A DNA stretch of 64,000 nt from a virus: IMG/VR virus record IMGVR_UViG_3300017917_001903, positions 1 through 64,000 of that record. The stretch is one strand, 5' to 3'. This document shows positions 310 to 56,133 of this stretch, piece after piece. A program made the position numbers and the translations under genes. Under the pieces are notes generated by a model, which was given only the letters and a program-made list of their open reading frames with translations, made no database searches and was not told the origin of the DNA. Position 1 is the first letter of the stretch. Each line of letters begins with the position of its first letter.

Positions 310-1165
310 ATCTAACCAAGCCTGAGATTACAGCTTCGAGCGAGTGTCTTTGACTTGTACCCTGTCCCTTGCGAGGAAGGTTGAGCCGTTATCCACTAAG
401 GTCCTTGCGGATCACCTAGTAACACTCAGTGCTGCCTTTTTTGGAGAGTGGCGTTTCTCTCGTCGTATGTTGCTATTCGTCCATCTATCTTCCGCCAGCC
501 TTGCGAGCTGTTCGACTGCGCTAACAGTCTACGTCTTCTATCCGAACAATCACTTCTGCCTTGCGAGCTTCTGTGAACCCAATTCACTTGCGTGTCAGGT
601 ATTAAGCACCTTTCACAACATACCGGAGCAGTCTTTCGCTTTTTGTTACAAACTGGGAATTGAACCCAGATCGACTGTTTAAGAGACAGTTGCATTACCA
701 TTATGCAATTTGCGAACCTACCAAGATGTGCTGCTCCAGTTGCTCCATACCTTGTTAGATACAGAATACAACACACCTCATGCCTTTCCCCTTGCGAGGT
801 ACTAAACGGTTTTTCAAGTCTCCCCTCATCGGTTCAACTATCAAACTAGTACTCGGCCCTTCTGCGCGAACAGTCGAACCCTGTACCTACCTGTTGATCA
901 TCAACATTCACAAGTTTGGTATGTTATAGCTTGGCCACCACAGCCTCTTGGAACTCACCGACTGGCTCTGTTCCTATCCTTTCGGACTATAACACCTGCT
1001 TACTGTCTATCGCCAACCATTACAGTGACGAAGGTTGCTTTCGGATTACTCCGAGTCAACCCTGACCCAGGCTTGCATAAATGGACTCTTGCGAGCGCAG
1101 GTGCGTAGGCTTTCCTGCTTTAGCTACATTGCTGTAGTTACCCTAAGGACGTTATGCCGCCCAAT
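310..1165 (-). ncRNA. GOLLD-like giant structured RNA (~850 nt)
   Basis: No credible ORF; five CTCGCAAG and other GNRA-capped hairpins on the minus strand; own promoter; adjacent to phage tRNAs; size and context fit GOLLD. Ends approximate. Confidence 0.75.
646..715 (-). ncRNA. tRNA-Lys(CTT)-like domain embedded in the giant RNA, no CCA
   Basis: D arm GCAT/ATGC, anticodon arm ACTGT-CTCTTAA-ACAGT, T arm CTGGG-TTCAATT-CCCAG, imperfect acceptor stem. Confidence 0.75.
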
Positions 1166-1757: not shown

Positions 1758-3053
1758 TTATTGGCGTGTTGTTTTTATACCGTCTGCTGTAGGGACTGTA
1801 TCAACAACGTCAATGTCTATAACTATGCTTTTTTGTCTTACGTAGTCTGCAAGTGTTGCATAATCTTTAGACGTGATATTTATAAGCGGATTATCTCCGT
1901 TGTCAAAATTAATGAAATAGTTTAAAATGCCTGTGTCTGTTTCTAACATGGTCTTGAAATGACCTGTTAACATTTTTATACCATCTACTCGAATCCAGTT
2001 AGTGTCTAATAGTCGACCAACGTAACGTATTTGATTGTCATGCAAATCAACAATATCACCGGAAGGAAACTGTACACCATTTGGGCGCTCAATTAAAAGC
2101 AAACCACTAGTGGAATTAACACTGTAGCGATAATGATGGTTTATGATATTAAAACGTTTATCGGTTTCTGACAAGTTGTTTATGTACCTAACTGCTAACG
2201 GTGGGCTAGCTTCAGTTAGACCGTAAATGTCAACTACTGTTTGAGCACCACCATCAAACAAATGCTCTAGCAACTTTGGTTTTAAATAATCGCCGCCAGT
2301 TGTAACATACCGTAGTTTGGTACACTTGGGCATTTTATGTGTGTCAACCATAGTGTAAAAAAATTGCGAGTGTGTTGCTTTAAGCATTTCACTTTCCCAA
2401 TTGTCGTGGTTAGCAAAACTTAAAACACTTGCACCAAACACAGCCGGTAATATGGCAGTAGAGTGAACCCCCACGTGACTCATACCATGTGAGAACACAC
2501 AATAGTCATCGGGCCGAATATATTCATCAATAGCAATGCGAATGCTTAGTGCATCGTATCCAACTGAAGTTTTAATTAATCTTGGTTTGCCAGTTGTGCC
2601 GCTGGAAAAACTATATTTGTAGTTATGTTCTCGGAAGGTAATATCTAAGCTATGCGGAACAGCGTATTTTGTTGCAGGATGTTGATCTGCCAATACGATT
2701 CTGTTACTGCCTCGAAAGTCTTCTTCGGGAATTTTGATATCATAACCAACAACAAAAACCTTACCAAAGCCACCAAAGTTAGTTTCAGCTGACTTTACAT
2801 AATCAATAATCGGTAGGTAAGGATCAATCTTAACGTAATCCTTTCCGTAATCGATCAGCGCCAACAGTACAGCAACAGACGAAAAGCTAGTTGATCCTCC
2901 AGCATATACTATGCCAAATGGGTATCCATTATCGTTGTCTGCAATAAACTGTTTCCAATAACCTACTGCCGCCGCTAACTGCTCACGAGTATATTCGCCA
3001 GCTGGGTCTCGGATAATTAAATTTTTACTTACTTTTAGAACTATATCTTCCAC
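1758..3053 (-). CDS. AMP-binding (acyl-CoA synthetase/ANL family) protein
   Basis: SSGTTGKPR P-loop, YGLTE and SGD motifs. Confidence 0.8.
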   Translation of the reverse strand: MEDIVLKVSKNLIIRDPAGEYTREQLAAAVGYWKQFIADNDNGYPFGIVYAGGSTSFSSVAVLLALIDYGKDYVKIDPYLPIIDYVKSAETNFGGFGKVFVVGYDIKIPEEDFRGSNRIVLADQHPATKYAVPHSLDITFREHNYKYSFSSGTTGKPRLIKTSVGYDALSIRIAIDEYIRPDDYCVFSHGMSHVGVHSTAILPAVFGASVLSFANHDNWESEMLKATHSQFFYTMVDTHKMPKCTKLRYVTTGGDYLKPKLLEHLFDGGAQTVVDIYGLTEASPPLAVRYINNLSETDKRFNIINHHYRYSVNSTSGLLLIERPNGVQFPSGDIVDLHDNQIRYVGRLLDTNWIRVDGIKMLTGHFKTMLETDTGILNYFINFDNGDNPLINITSKDYATLADYVRQKSIVIDIDVVDTVPTADGIKTTRQ

Positions 3054-3240
3054 GTGACGCTAACCTTGCTAATGCTATTGTTTTTCTATATGAGTACGAA
3101 GTAAACACATTGGGAAAAACTGCATGCATGAGGCTAGCAATACCAGCTTTAATAAGCACTATGCCGGCGCCAGCAGCAAATTTAAAATGCTGTCTATAGG
3201 AAGTTTGTTTTTCTTTGATGTGTTTGAACATAGCAAACAC
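3025..3240 (-). CDS. small conserved protein (DUF6356-like)
   Basis: SYRQHFKFA...HAVFP pattern. Confidence 0.6.
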   Translation of the reverse strand: MFAMFKHIKEKQTSYRQHFKFAAGAGIVLIKAGIASLMHAVFPNVFTSYSYRKTIALARLASRGRYSSKSK

Positions 3241-3256
3241 TATTTATATTCAGAGA

Positions 3257-3330
3257 TGGCTGGCCCTCAAGGATTCGAACCTCGGCTGCCGGAATCAAAA
3301 TCCGGTGTCCTACCACTAGACGAAGGGCCA
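3257..3330 (-). tRNA. tRNA-Gln(TTG)
   Basis: cloverleaf, encoded CCA. Confidence 0.95.
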
Positions 3331-3335
3331 ATAAA

Positions 3336-3695
3336 TTATTTTGCTAAACTATGCTTGACGGGTTTACCGTCTTCATCGAGACACACAAAAACCATTTCGT
3401 CAATTTCAACTATGATGTTTTGTGTGGTTAAGTCTCGTACTTTTACTTCAATTGTTATGCTGGTGTTGCCAACTTTCTTAAGGGCTATACCAATTTCAAC
3501 AATATCACCTTGGCGTGCTGGTGCAACAAACTCAATTGCAGAAATGCTTTTTGTTACTACTTTTTTATGGCGTGCTTCGATGGCTGCATATATAACAGCT
3601 TCTTCATCTACCCACTGTAATAGCCTACCGCCAAATAGTGTGTTGTTAGCATTTAGGTCTTCGGGCTTTACTAATTTTCTCGTTAAAAACCGCAT
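3336..3695 (-). CDS. acyl-CoA thioesterase (hotdog fold, YciA-like)
   Basis: DLNANNTLFGGRLLQWVDE motif. Confidence 0.85.
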   Translation of the reverse strand: MRFLTRKLVKPEDLNANNTLFGGRLLQWVDEEAVIYAAIEARHKKVVTKSISAIEFVAPARQGDIVEIGIALKKVGNTSITIEVKVRDLTTQNIIVEIDEMVFVCLDEDGKPVKHSLAK

Positions 3696-3720
3696 GCATT
3701 ATGTTACCTCTTATTGTGTA

Positions 3721-3797
3721 TGGCGACCCGTAGGGGACTTGAACCCCTGGCCTCATGCGTGACAGGCATGCGATCTAACCAACTGATCTAACGGGCC
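3721..3797 (-). tRNA. tRNA-Asp(GTC)
   Basis: cloverleaf, encoded CCA. Confidence 0.95.
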
Positions 3798-3802
3798 ATG
3801 AA

Positions 3803-4016
3803 ACTTGTTAGGTGTGCTGCTACTAGTCCCCACTGGCCCAGCACTGAGTTGTTACCCTGTCCACAAGTGCATTTCTAGGTCGGCACTTGAACGCCCGCGC
3901 AATGTTATCGAGTCACCCATGTTAAGCGGGTCTCTGCGGCAGATTGCTTCGCCGGTATCTTTATGGCATGATACGTCTGCCCACTTTCGTTACGCCCAAA
4001 GTGTAATGCGGGGTTC
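3803..4016 (-). ncRNA. unassigned structured RNA between tRNA-Ser and tRNA-Asp
   Basis: GC-rich, several hairpins (CAAGTGC/GCACTTG, GTGCTG/CAGCAC, GGCAGA/TCTGCC), no credible ORF. Confidence 0.5.
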
Positions 4017-4109
4017 TGGCGGTGAGGGTGGGATTCGAACCCACGGTACGCCTATTAAGCGTACGACGGTTTAGCAAACCGCTCCTTTCGGCCTCTCAGG
4101 CACCTCACC
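4017..4109 (-). tRNA. tRNA-Ser(GCT)
   Basis: cloverleaf with long variable arm, CCA. Confidence 0.95.
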
Positions 4110-4739
4110 AACTAACTCATCTACAAACTGCAATAATAATTTATGATGTGCGGCATAATGCCAACTCTTTTTTAGATATTTTTTATTATACCAAAACTCT
4201 TCGCTTTCAGGATGACATCCTATTAGACCTATGTTACCTTGTATGATTGCCATTGGGTCGCTGTTAGCATAACTAGCAATAGTTTTATAACTACCAGAAC
4301 CAACAAATGTACAACCATCGTAAAAATACATAGGCATATATTGACCTTGCCAATTAACATTAGCTACAGTTGGGAAGCTTCTGCGTACATCGGCATTAGT
4401 TTGTTTAATATACTGCACTACTTGTATATTGTCAAGTATATCAAAATACCAATGCCCGGACCAATAGGCTCCCATGCATATGCCAAGATACTTTCCACCG
4501 CTGGTTACATAGTCTGCTATTTTATTTGATAACCTACGTGTAAAAAAATTATGGAAAGAATCGCTGTCGCCAATGCCGCCCGGAAACGCAACCGCGTCAA
4601 ACACTGCGAGATCCAAGTTAGTTAAATCTAACTCATTAAACGATATCAGTTGATATTTAGAAGATAATGCTGTAGTCATGCCCGATATACACTCTTTAGA
4701 GCATTCGGGGTGTCTTAAAAATACAGCGATCTTCTTCAT
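4071..4739 (-). CDS. class I glutamine amidotransferase-like (BPL_N-type) protein
   Basis: FPGGIGD, YLGICMGAY, GCHPE motifs; start moved to MKKIAVF. Confidence 0.8.
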   Translation of the reverse strand: MKKIAVFLRHPECSKECISGMTTALSSKYQLISFNELDLTNLDLAVFDAVAFPGGIGDSDSFHNFFTRRLSNKIADYVTSGGKYLGICMGAYWSGHWYFDILDNIQVVQYIKQTNADVRRSFPTVANVNWQGQYMPMYFYDGCTFVGSGSYKTIASYANSDPMAIIQGNIGLIGCHPESEEFWYNKKYLKKSWHYAAHHKLLLQFVDELVGEVPERPKGAVC

Positions 4740-4758
4740 TATGTACCAGCTGACAAAT

Positions 4759-4833
4759 TGGCATACCCTCAAGGATTCGAACCTCGACCAGCGGTTTTGG
4801 AGACCGTTATGCTGCCGTTAACACCAAGGGTAC
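4759..4833 (-). tRNA. tRNA-Trp(CCA)
   Basis: cloverleaf, encoded CCA. Confidence 0.9.
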
Positions 4834-4837
4834 AAAC

Positions 4838-4912
4838 TGGTGCGGGATGAGAGGGTCGAACTCCCGACATTCGCCGTGTAAAGGCGCTACTCTACCACTG
4901 AGTTAATCCCGC
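4838..4912 (-). tRNA. tRNA-Val(TAC)
   Basis: cloverleaf, encoded CCA. Confidence 0.95.
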
Positions 4913-4955
4913 ATAATATTACTTATGCTTAAACTTTCTATGTGCCATTAATGAA

Positions 4956-5033
4956 TGGCCGGCCCTGAGAGACTCGAACTCCCGACCTTACGGTTCGTAG
5001 CCGTATGCTCTAATCCAACTGAGCTAAGGGCCG
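4956..5033 (-). tRNA. tRNA-Arg(ACG)
   Basis: cloverleaf, encoded CCA. Confidence 0.95.
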
Positions 5034-5034
5034 C

Positions 5035-5111
5035 TGGGGTGAAGGACGGGACTCGAACCCGCGACAACCGGTACCACAAACCGGGGCTCTACCAACTGAG
5101 CTACCGACACC
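5035..5111 (-). tRNA. tRNA-His(GTG) with G-1:C73
   Basis: cloverleaf; two acceptor-stem mismatches. Confidence 0.9.
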
Positions 5112-5117
5112 ATAATT

Positions 5118-5193
5118 TGGTAGCAACGGGCAGATTCGAACTGCCGACAGGCGGCGTATGAGACCGCTGCTCTACCAACTGAGCTACGTTGCT
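5118..5193 (-). tRNA. tRNA-Met(CAT), probably elongator
   Basis: cloverleaf, paired 1:72. Confidence 0.85.
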
Positions 5194-5608
5194 AAATTTT
5201 TGCTTTACTAACTAAATCTTTGTAACCTCGCCAGCTAGGATGAATCTTATCTGGCTGTACATATGGTGTGCTAATAACATCATCGTTATATAGTGTAGCC
5301 ATATGTTCGACTACTGCATTTACTTTAGGCTTACAAAATCCTTTGTTGCATGGAGGCATAATCCAAACCACACGCATTGACTTAATACGATAACGAATCT
5401 TGTATAATTCCTTAAAAGTATTAACGCCAGGATGATCATTTGTGCCAAGACTAATAACAACAGTCTTAGCTTCTAGCGGAGTCTTGCCCCACTTACGATT
5501 CCATTGCCAAGTATTATATCCACCTTTGGAATATGACACACATTCCTTAGGGGCAAACATCTTAGTACCAACGGCGATTGAATCGCCCATAATCAAACAT
5601 TCTAACAT
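5192..5608 (-). CDS. SGNH/GDSL hydrolase-like protein
   Basis: GDSI, LGTND, DKIHP blocks. Confidence 0.8.
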   Translation of the reverse strand: MLECLIMGDSIAVGTKMFAPKECVSYSKGGYNTWQWNRKWGKTPLEAKTVVISLGTNDHPGVNTFKELYKIRYRIKSMRVVWIMPPCNKGFCKPKVNAVVEHMATLYNDDVISTPYVQPDKIHPSWRGYKDLVSKAKI

Positions 5609-5701: not shown

Positions 5702-5721
5702 TAACCAGGTAACTGGCGTTC

Positions 5722-5834
5722 TGGCGTTCCTTGTGGACTTGCACCACTGTACACCAAGGACAGGTTTGCAGAGCAGGTCATTAGCCTGTTACAGTGACCA
5801 GAGAGATCCTTGTGCCACCCTTTATGGAGGAACA
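5722..5834 (-). ncRNA. tRNA-like RNA with expanded anticodon domain
   Basis: acceptor GTTCCT/AGGAAC-GCCA, T-like arm GTGG-TGCAAGT-CCAC, D-like hairpin, large domain replacing the anticodon arm. Confidence 0.6.
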
Positions 5835-5840
5835 TAAACT

Positions 5841-7168: not shown

Positions 7169-7243
7169 AAAAATACAAGTCCGTTTTATCAACTTATATC
7201 TTGTTATAGCACACGTTGAGTATGTGTCAACCATAATATTGAA

Positions 7244-7439
7244 TTTGTTAAGTGCCAGCCACCACATACATTGACTGCATTATTCACAAATTATGGGCCC
7301 TGTGATTTTGAGCTTGCGCTCTTAGGGTACGTTAGTGATAGAAACTACTTGACCGTTGCTAGTTTTACCTCACTTGCGGAGTCGCCTCACCACTGTGTGC
7401 CCACAGTCGGTTTTCGTTACATCTAACACACTTAACAAA
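7244..7439 (-). ncRNA. stem-enclosed structured RNA 3' of tRNA-Ser(TGA)
   Basis: 11-bp terminal inverted repeat TTTGTTAAGTG/CACTTAACAAA, internal GNRA hairpins. Confidence 0.55.
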
Positions 7440-7442
7440 ACT

Positions 7443-8073: not shown

Positions 8074-8151
8074 TGGAGCGGGTAGGGAGAGTCGAACTCC
8101 GCGATCTTCAGCTTGGAAGGCTGCTGGACGCCCCTTGTCCTGTCTACCCGC
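8074..8151 (-). tRNA. tRNA-Gly(TCC), atypical 8/4 fold
   Basis: CTTCCAA loop, U73-CCA, 8-bp acceptor and 4-bp T stem. Confidence 0.8.
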
Positions 8152-8155
8152 GTAT

Positions 8156-8242
8156 TGGTGGGTGAGGATGGATTCGAACCAACTCAGCCGTAAGACAACA
8201 GATTTACAGTCTGCCGCGACTCTCCAACTTCGCCGCTCACCC
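8156..8242 (-). tRNA. tRNA-Tyr(GTA)
   Basis: cloverleaf with variable arm, CCA. Confidence 0.9.
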
Positions 8243-8263
8243 AATACAAAATTTTTAAACTAT

Positions 8264-8426
8264 CCATGTTATAGTAAAGTATTGTCCGCATGCAAATTTT
8301 TCAGTCGATTGCAGTCGTGATAAGCCATTGCAAGAGTTATATCAGGACTGAGAGATGGCCCTACCCAGCCCGCCTAGTGTATGCGTCCATACACGCTACC
8401 TCTGACAATACTTTACTATAACATGG
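8264..8426 (-). ncRNA. structured RNA enclosed by a perfect 23-bp inverted repeat
   Basis: 8264-8286 is the exact reverse complement of 8404-8426. Confidence 0.6.
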
Positions 8427-8499
8427 TACACCGTACGGGAATCGAACCCGTCTTTCCGCCTTGAAAGGGCAGTGTCCTAAACCGATAGACGAACGGTGC
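8424..8499 (-). tRNA. tRNA-Glu(TTC)
   Basis: cloverleaf, encoded CCA. Confidence 0.95.
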
Positions 8500-8520
8500 A
8501 CAGTTATTTTAAATCCACAA

Positions 8521-8532
8521 TGTTAAAGAGCA
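8521..8532 (-). promoter_or_regulatory. rrn-type boxA antitermination site
   Basis: exact TGCTCTTTAACA between promoter and first tRNA. Confidence 0.8.
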
Positions 8533-8558
8533 AGTGCCAAAACAGCACAACAAAACAA

Positions 8559-8587
8559 AGTATATTACACTTTGCTCTGCTTGTCAA
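8559..8587 (-). promoter_or_regulatory. sigma70 promoter of the tRNA array
   Basis: TTGACA-N17-TATACT. Confidence 0.8.
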
Positions 8588-8701
8588 GTTCTTTTTTGTG
8601 GAACTTAACAGCACTATTTTGACCCGGAACCAAAAACTGGTCCCTTCATATACTGTACTTGACAGTATATGACAAAGGAATCATGCTGTCAAGTGATTTG
8701 T

Positions 8702-46697: not shown

Positions 46698-46715
46698 ATA
46701 TAAACATTCAACTCT

Positions 46716-46823
46716 TAAACTAGACCCCGCACTCGTTTTGTCGAGTTGTATCTACTGATACTGCACCTCACGAAGCCGCCCCTTTAAGAGGTTTTCAACA
46801 CTCTATCAGCCCCGTCTAGTTTA
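46716..46823 (-). ncRNA. stem-enclosed structured RNA between tRNA-Arg and tRNA-Leu
   Basis: 10-bp terminal repeat TAAACTAGAC/GTCTAGTTTA, internal hairpins. Confidence 0.5.
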
Positions 46824-46848
46824 TGCCCTCGTCTTTCCCTCTGTAATC

Positions 46849-55899: not shown

Positions 55900-56057
55900 T
55901 GTGTTTCCTTCCTGCTAGTGTTTATATACACTATTTATGAAAAGAAACACCAAAAATAAGTACTCGGTTTATCTCCGTCCGGTCGACACGGACTTGATCC
56001 TACTCATTGCCATCGCTGTGCGACAAACCTTACACCGAAAGGTAGGGCGGCAAATTC

Positions 56058-56133
56058 TGGTGCCCTCACCATGATTCGAACACGGGACCTACTGATTACA
56101 AATCAGTTGCTCTACCAGCTGAGCTATAAGGGC
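56058..56133 (-). tRNA. tRNA-Thr(TGT), second copy
   Basis: cloverleaf, encoded CCA. Confidence 0.95.

Follow-up and report, generated by a model that had tools for sequence, protein, structure and literature searches.

Introduction

Phage T4 encodes two small RNAs beside its tRNAs, species 1 and species 2 (rnaC and rnaD, of 139 and 119 nt), whose genes lie head to tail with phage tRNA genes on the same strand. They are released by the tRNA-type processing, and Paddock et al. (1976) reported that RNase III cuts species 1 RNA in vitro. We know of no function for either. The element described here, at 8264-8426 of a phage DNA stretch, is like them in its small size and in its position among same-strand tRNA genes.

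The rRNA operons and the T7 early RNA provide another parallel. There, too, a long helix, in their case an RNase III stalk or site, surrounds a stable RNA in a polycistronic transcript, and in the rRNA operons it is formed from the flanks of the 16S and 23S rRNAs. The operon of our element shares boxA-like and tandem-promoter features with them and has a tRNA-Glu gene just upstream of the element. A tRNA-Glu gene is present also in some of the E. coli rrn operons.

Three further RNAs are comparable in part. The GOLLD and ROOL RNAs are likewise phage-borne, heavily structured and encoded beside tRNA genes. The pistol ribozyme (RF02679) has the same strand order of hairpin loop, linker, second helix, pseudoknot strand and third helix. 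The YrlA or Y RNA-like family (RF02553) likewise carries a structured module on a terminal stem made from the two ends of the RNA, and YrlA-type RNAs have been reported in phage tRNA arrays.

Non-tRNA stable RNAs in the phage tRNA clusters and processing stalks are already known, and the RNA family and the CCA-anchored stalk design reported here are new forms of them. We find it likely that 8264-8426 on the minus strand is a single-copy gene for a structured noncoding RNA of about 160 nt, which belongs to an undescribed phage family and is released from a tRNA operon transcript. Large phages encode tRNA sets of their own, and many non-tRNA genes that the annotation pipelines skip are found in these arrays.

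Results

The window, meaning the whole 64,000-nt stretch analysed, covers positions 1-64,000 of the IMG/VR record IMGVR_UViG_3300017917_001903, which is 86.9 kb long and estimated to be 25% complete. Its source is a large phage of a lake or pond. It encodes phage proteins, a DNA ligase, an endonuclease and a ClpX-like ATPase among others, and ARAGORN made 33 calls in it, 32 of them for tRNA genes and one for a permuted tmRNA gene. An Rfam search also located a GOLLD RNA and a COG2908 motif in it.

At the locus of the element all the tRNAs are on the minus strand, in the order of tRNA-Glu(UUC) at 8499-8424, the element at 8426-8264, a 21-nt spacer and tRNA-Tyr(GUA) at 8242-8156. Because ARAGORN calls both flanking tRNAs on the minus strand, this is taken as the RNA-sense strand of the element, and all its parts are given on it below. 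The tRNA-Glu gene, which is matched also by the Rfam tRNA model with 55.9 bits, is the first of the operon. Ahead of it, a stretch of 8521-8692 (minus strand) has two promoter-like sites and a boxA-like site, all recognised from consensus matches only. The former are in tandem, TTGACA-N17-TATACT at 8692-8664 and at 8587-8559 with 11 of 12 consensus matches each, and the latter is UGCUCUUUAACA at 8532-8521. With these sites the operon looks rrn-like, and the element would therefore be the second gene of a stable-RNA operon. In 7 of 64 loci, similar sites (GCUCUUU[AG]ACA) precede the family member.

The element is closed by the longest perfect inverted repeat of the window. Its arms at 8264-8286 and 8404-8426, located by an inverted-repeat search, are 23 nt each, 100% complementary and 117 nt apart. 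The 5′ arm of this stalk (S0), CCAUGUUAUAGUAAAGUAUUGUC at 8404-8426, begins with the encoded CCA of tRNA-Glu (8426-8424), so the three bases double as stalk nucleotides 1-3, and the 3′ arm at 8264-8286 ends with UGG opposite the CCA. An earlier sequence-only reading of this DNA had claimed an exact 23-bp repeat starting at the tRNA-Glu CCA and, moreover, a stem that closes off a structured cargo immediately 3′ of a stable RNA; both are borne out. The stalk is an unbroken duplex of about two helical turns, 23 bp and perfect, formed from the flanks of a stable RNA as are the RNase III-type stalks. A 188-nt stretch holding the element folds at -66.4 kcal/mol (z = -6.4), and none of 200 shuffles did as well.

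An inner 18-mer of the element, GTGTATGGACGCATACAC, occurs in 60 IMG/VR stretches, against about two expected by chance as estimated from the collection size, and the flanks of its matches align across the whole element. A covariance model, R1, was built from 42 distinct sequences including that of the window, so the window matches it by construction (100.5 bits, E 1.2e-23, full length with all parts located). On the loci fetched by a different 15-mer, R1 added 24 full-length members as well as two matches with truncated ends. A degenerate pattern with an unconstrained H1 stem brought in 83 new loci, every one of which R1 matched. The R1 matches thus number at least 149 (66 + 83) at E values of about 4e-16 or lower, all but two of them in IMG/VR phage contigs, and comprise at least 134 distinct complete elements. 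Hence, the element is no chance repeat but the gene of a conserved, uncatalogued RNA family, whose members are also carried by other contigs from uncultured phages, well over a hundred of them.

Several of the family-bearing contigs are 260-560 kb long and belong to jumbo phages. The DNA runs in which the stretch occurs come from pond, freshwater, riverine and aquatic metagenomes, with one labelled marine. The copy number is one in each of five records, including the contig of the window and three near-complete phage genomes of 342-345 kb. Among 185,579 species genomes the 18-mer occurs in three stretches, and one of them is a family member. This sole cellular-genome record with a member is a 3.9-kb contig of a Bacteroidetes MAG (L170, CAIWHI010000318.1), where the match of 91.8 bits is truncated at the edge of the contig. 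This contig is probably phage DNA that was binned with the MAG.

The element has no match at gathering score among the 4227 models of Rfam 15. At E values up to 10, in searches with 1.5-kb, 7.5-kb and 161-nt slices, the sole overlap was a chance one with the U54 snoRNA (E 8.6). A blastn search of the element against 50,697 phage records gave only chance matches of 19-22 nt. We found no description of the family in the literature searched, and it may be among the unnamed ones of the 10,006 candidate viral RNAs of PMC10690425.

The core inside the stalk, about 113 nt long, is as the comparison of relatives shows a four-way junction of the stalk, H1, H2 and a P4 helix that encloses H3, and it is locked by a pseudoknot of the H2 loop. 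After the 5′ arm of the stalk comes the junction J0/1, AGAGGUAGC at 8395-8403, with a conserved GGUA.C in invariant or near-invariant columns. The hairpin H1 at 8377-8394 has a 7-bp stem and a conserved GACG loop; its first two pairs, G-C and U-A, are nearly invariant, 99% of its cells are paired and five of the seven pairs have double changes. It is the GTGTATG-GACG-CATACAC hairpin that the sequence-only reading had picked out. The hairpin H2 at 8345-8371 is formed by GGGCUG and CAGUCC around a large loop, is 98-99% paired and covaries.

The A-rich linker J2/4, UGAUAUAAC at 8336-8344, is conserved with invariant columns, and its family consensus CU.A.AUAAC includes the preceding C, which is the last base of H2. 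P4 pairs UGCA at 8329-8332 with UGCA at 8291-8294, and covarying forms of it in relatives include UGCU/GGCA, GACCAA/UUGGUU and GAGCAA/UUGCUC. H3 at 8301-8320 has an internal bulge and a GC dinucleotide kept in its loop; its helices (7/8 and 6/7) are 85-99% paired, with double changes in all pairs. Between H3 and the 3′ strand of P4 lies the junction J3/4, AAAAUU at 8295-8300, with an invariant AAAU. The conserved unpaired bases, GGUA.C, CU.A.AUAAC and AAAU, thus sit around the junction, and the invariant bases together with the knot suggest a binding pocket or a protein site. A subfamily (L027, L033, L037 and L044) has an additional small hairpin, with a GUAA loop for instance, between P4 and the stalk's 3′ arm, and the insertion site marks a tolerant surface of the fold.

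The pseudoknot pairs GCCAU in the H2 loop (8355-8359) with AUGGC directly 3′ of the 5′ strand of P4 (8324-8328). It makes 4-6 bp in all 64 sequences and has eight compensatory variants in the family: GCCGG/UCGGC, GCGA/UCGC, GCGAG/UUCGC, GCCAU/AUGGC, GCUUCU/AGAAGC, ACCAU/AUGGU, GCAU/AUGC and GCCA/UGGC. A possible pseudoknot had been proposed from the window alone; a genuine one does exist, but its strands are others than those proposed. Likewise, of the two overlapping pairings named then, GGGCTG/CAGTCC is the covarying H2, whereas AGAGGT/ATCTCT is not conserved. The latter helix was rejected, having 6 bp in the window only and 2-5 bp in the other 63 distinct sequences, and it competes with the true pseudoknot.

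Overall, 92-93% of the pair cells are paired against 62-69% in shuffled alignments, and every helix covaries. In a first set of 64 distinct sequences, 93.0% of the pair cells are standard pairs against 68.7% shuffled, and 33 of 38 pairs have changes on both sides. The covariation score of 0.60 compares with 0.16 shuffled and was reached by none of 500 shuffles, and the controls with slid partners are only 27-43% paired. A second set of 72 distinct sequences, with none of its loci in the R1 seed alignment, gave 91.8% against 61.7% paired and scores of 0.73 against 0.19. Both alignments were fitted to R1, so these counts lean somewhat towards the model. The effect size and the raw MAFFT alignments nevertheless leave little doubt about the fold.

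The pairs also tell the strand. A near-invariant pair of H2 (columns 55 and 78) is G.U in 58 of the 64 sequences, and the stalk contains U.G pairs; all of them turn into mismatches when read on the opposite strand. They are valid on the tRNA-sense strand only and therefore indicate an RNA rather than a DNA hairpin.

Among the 134 elements, the stalk is 18-25 bp long in 125, with a median of 21 bp and a GC content of 0.30, and comes in 102 different sequences; covariation is seen at all 12 of its modelled pairs. The interior is 102-134 nt long with a median of 113. The near-constant length with so many sequences implies selection on length and pairing, not on sequence. A length of about 20-22 bp is the usual quoted size of the bacterial RNase III substrates. 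Conservation along the stalk, compared between its inner and outer halves, showed no clear boundary to mark a cut site.

The tRNA neighbours are as regular. Same-strand tRNAs are in the locus of 131 of the 134 elements, and the next tRNA starts within 10 nt past the stalk in 91, mostly at 1-4 nt, while it is 21 nt away in the window. In 56 of the 134, the 3′ end of an upstream tRNA lies no more than 5 nt from the stalk; the stalk overlaps this tRNA in 48 of the 56, and in 38 it is tRNA-Glu(UUC). By these family-wide counts the arrangement in the window is typical. Some members have no tRNA ahead of them and are the first gene behind a boxA-like site. The stalk had been read as sequestering the tRNA-Glu CCA; it does start on this CCA in the window, but the overlap is not family-wide. 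Since it occurs in only 36% of the elements, it may be simply tight packing.

Closing stems are found around other inserts as well. Terminal stems were scored for 228 distinct gaps between tRNA genes, each 70-330 nt long, in the fetched phage loci. Among the 197 gaps outside the family, 23 have a terminal stem scoring 10 or more (up to 22.5), and as a control the best of 30 shuffles per gap scored 11 or more in only 10 of the 197. Many of these stems start on CCA (e.g. UACCAUAUUAAAG...) and enclose unrelated interiors of 70-243 nt, and the stems of different cassettes in these arrays are alike (CCAUAUAAAA...). In the best 150 of the 230 Rfam matches on the surveyed loci, only tRNAs, GOLLD and tmRNA were recognised. 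Large inserts of 125-243 nt with 19-24-bp stems lie at L034:5889-6131, L048:10570-10783, L022:3499-3673, L156:1785-1909 and L081:4909-5147; most of them start on CCA, and their interiors are foreign to our RNA family and unrecognised among these best Rfam matches.

The sequence-only reading had claimed four stem-enclosed cargoes in the window and, from them, a general packaging scheme. Besides the element itself, a hairpin with a 22-bp stem at 212-316, directly after GOLLD, stands well (z -5.9), and an element of about 200 nt at 7236-7442 (minus strand), after tRNA-Ser as the last tRNA of the operon, has a stem of about 15 bp and z -2.4. The fourth at 46716-46823, however, falls away, as the fold of 46700-46846 is not significant (z -1.8). 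Thus, not all four examples hold, but the scheme finds support in the similar and often CCA-anchored stems around unrelated interiors in 23 of the 197 gaps. A blastn search of the three other cargoes and of 5702-5840 against 168 fetched loci found no relatives but one match, a 59-nt part of 7236-7442 that is 80% identical to L008:4413-4471.

Discussion

Our best guess is a stable RNA cut out of a tRNA precursor. The gene would be the second of a polycistronic tRNA operon that is transcribed from the two strong promoters in tandem, and the RNA would be released by the same enzymes that mature the neighbouring tRNAs. The RNase P cut at the next tRNA would set the 3′ side, while the perfect two-turn AU-rich stalk would be cut, most plausibly by the host RNase III. 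Exonucleases would then trim the tRNA-Glu trailer to a free CCA end, and the core would be left on a shortened stalk that shields the RNA ends. The RNase III is assumed to be the host's because the phages encode none: no RNase III gene (PF14622) was found in the five records, including the three near-complete genomes with the RNA.

Some assembled sequences from RNA libraries, in which DNA is possible, touch the locus. On 8100-8700 such contigs (X15-X18) align at 90-99% likeness with tRNA parts only, leaving 8247-8414 uncovered. A riverine metatranscriptome contig joins a tRNA-Glu to the start of a family relative, with a loose end at 8423, and is a weak hint of transcription, DNA being possible in this library too. 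As to the role, we would guess that the released RNA acts in trans by binding a protein or a ligand and is tied to tRNA or to the translation takeover.

The stem alone could be what matters. The element may be a cis-acting processing or regulatory signal whose stalk pairs with the tRNA-Glu CCA or the next leader and so gates the tRNA maturation, the excised piece being jobless. This would agree with the stalks that start on or inside the upstream tRNA 3′ end (48 of 134) and in many elements (offsets -4 to -7) extend the pairing to the discriminator and an acceptor base, with tRNA-Glu as the usual upstream neighbour (38 of 56) and with the similar stems that other cassettes use around unrelated interiors. 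We hold it unlikely, however, as the core, with its length of about 113 nt, its four covarying helices, its pseudoknot and its invariant bases at the junction, far exceeds the needs of a processing signal, 64% of the elements do not overlap the upstream tRNA 3′ end and some members that follow a boxA-like site have no preceding tRNA. A new class of self-cleaving ribozyme is very unlikely, although the H2, pseudoknot, P4 and H3 strands follow the pistol topology, in which, past an A-rich linker, the strand joining the second helix to the third pairs with the hairpin loop, and the conserved unpaired bases concentrate at the junction. Small ribozymes such as theta and hammerhead cases are common in the phage DNA and beside tRNAs. 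Nevertheless, no Rfam ribozyme matched the 161-nt slice even at E values up to 10, the linker at the cut position of pistol is AAAU, not the G-U dinucleotide that pistol cleaves, and a cut inside the core, about 20 bp away from both tRNAs, would make no tRNA end.

The loop pairing might join different molecules, as in the phi29 pRNA rings or the GOLLD and ROOL cages. It is a loop-to-internal-strand pairing of 4-6 bp whose covariation is equally compatible with pairing within one molecule or between molecules, and the RNA shares arrays with GOLLD in some phages. Such a multimer-forming RNA is still highly improbable to us, since an ordinary H-type knot within a single molecule, with an A-rich third loop, is compatible with the strand order and GOLLD is absent from the three near-complete genomes with the RNA. 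Finally, the perfect 23-bp terminal inverted repeat and the resemblance of stems among different cassettes could be taken for a MITE-like mobile element footprint, or the repeat for a DNA-level hairpin or cruciform. This is barely credible in view of the 102 different stalk sequences with pairing kept by double changes, the G.U pairs valid on the tRNA-sense strand only, the exact junctions with tRNA ends and the lack of a transposase nearby. The sequence-only reading had itself named the ends of a mobile element with copies elsewhere as evidence against its scheme; there is one copy in each of the five records, and the arms covary instead of being conserved.

A bolder form of the preferred reading, the RNA released from the tRNA transcript, can be set beside it. 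The core would be a new functional RNA class, being a catalyst, a sensor or a decoy or partner of a tRNA-acting protein, and the stalk would be a general, swappable phage expression cassette that uses the host RNase III and RNase P to release many small RNAs from the tRNA operons. We regard this whole proposal as doubtful.

As to the described systems, the likeness of the element to them stops at several points. A long perfect stalk is absent from the predicted folds of T4 rnaC and rnaD, and at its end rnaC has a T arm like that of a tRNA. Homology with them was rejected, as R1 with filters off reached only 8.3 bits (E 0.3) on the T4 locus (L172), and this best match lies off rnaC and rnaD. 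Compared with the rRNA stalks, that of the family encloses a core of about 113 nt and not an rRNA, is about 21 bp long and perfect, often starts on a tRNA CCA and is a putative RNase III site.

GOLLD is found in the window (319-779) and in two related loci, but the element is four to five times smaller than GOLLD or ROOL and is unmatched by their models. A coupling of the RNA to GOLLD was also rejected, GOLLD being absent from the three near-complete genomes that carry the RNA. Pistol (RF02679) gave no match at E values up to 10 and has different linkers, while our element adds H1 and the stalk. YrlA was rejected as well, because the RF02553 matches fall on tRNA boundaries rather than on the element and the core has no tRNA-like T or D arm. 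Unlike YrlA, moreover, the stalk of our family has no conserved protein-binding sequence, with 102 different sequences.

The family is widespread with at least 149 model matches, strongly structured and uncatalogued, so it offers a well-defined RNA for the biochemistry of its fold, partners and processing. The shared stalk design hints at a simple rule for finding hidden phage RNA genes and also at a natural way to release RNAs from a tRNA transcript.

Some minor observations were made on the way. In T4, the 3′ part of rnaC (L172:1409-1547) folds as a tRNA-like T arm (GGGUUCGAAUCCCGG) within a strongly stable fold (z -4.6). In the window, the GOLLD RNA at 319-779 (minus strand, 194 bits) has a tRNA-Lys(CUU)-like element embedded at 645-715. 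The COG2908 motif (RF02939, 70.3 bits, full-length) lies at 56008-56052 on the minus strand, 5 nt downstream of a phage tRNA-Thr gene (56058-56133), which looks odd because Rfam files this family as a cis-regulatory motif. The tRNA genes at 1758-5608 (minus strand) have protein genes among them, which encode an AMP-binding enzyme (431 aa), a 4HBT thioesterase, a BPL_N-like protein and a GDSL-like hydrolase. This gene group resembles a small acyl-activation set and is unusual inside a tRNA region.
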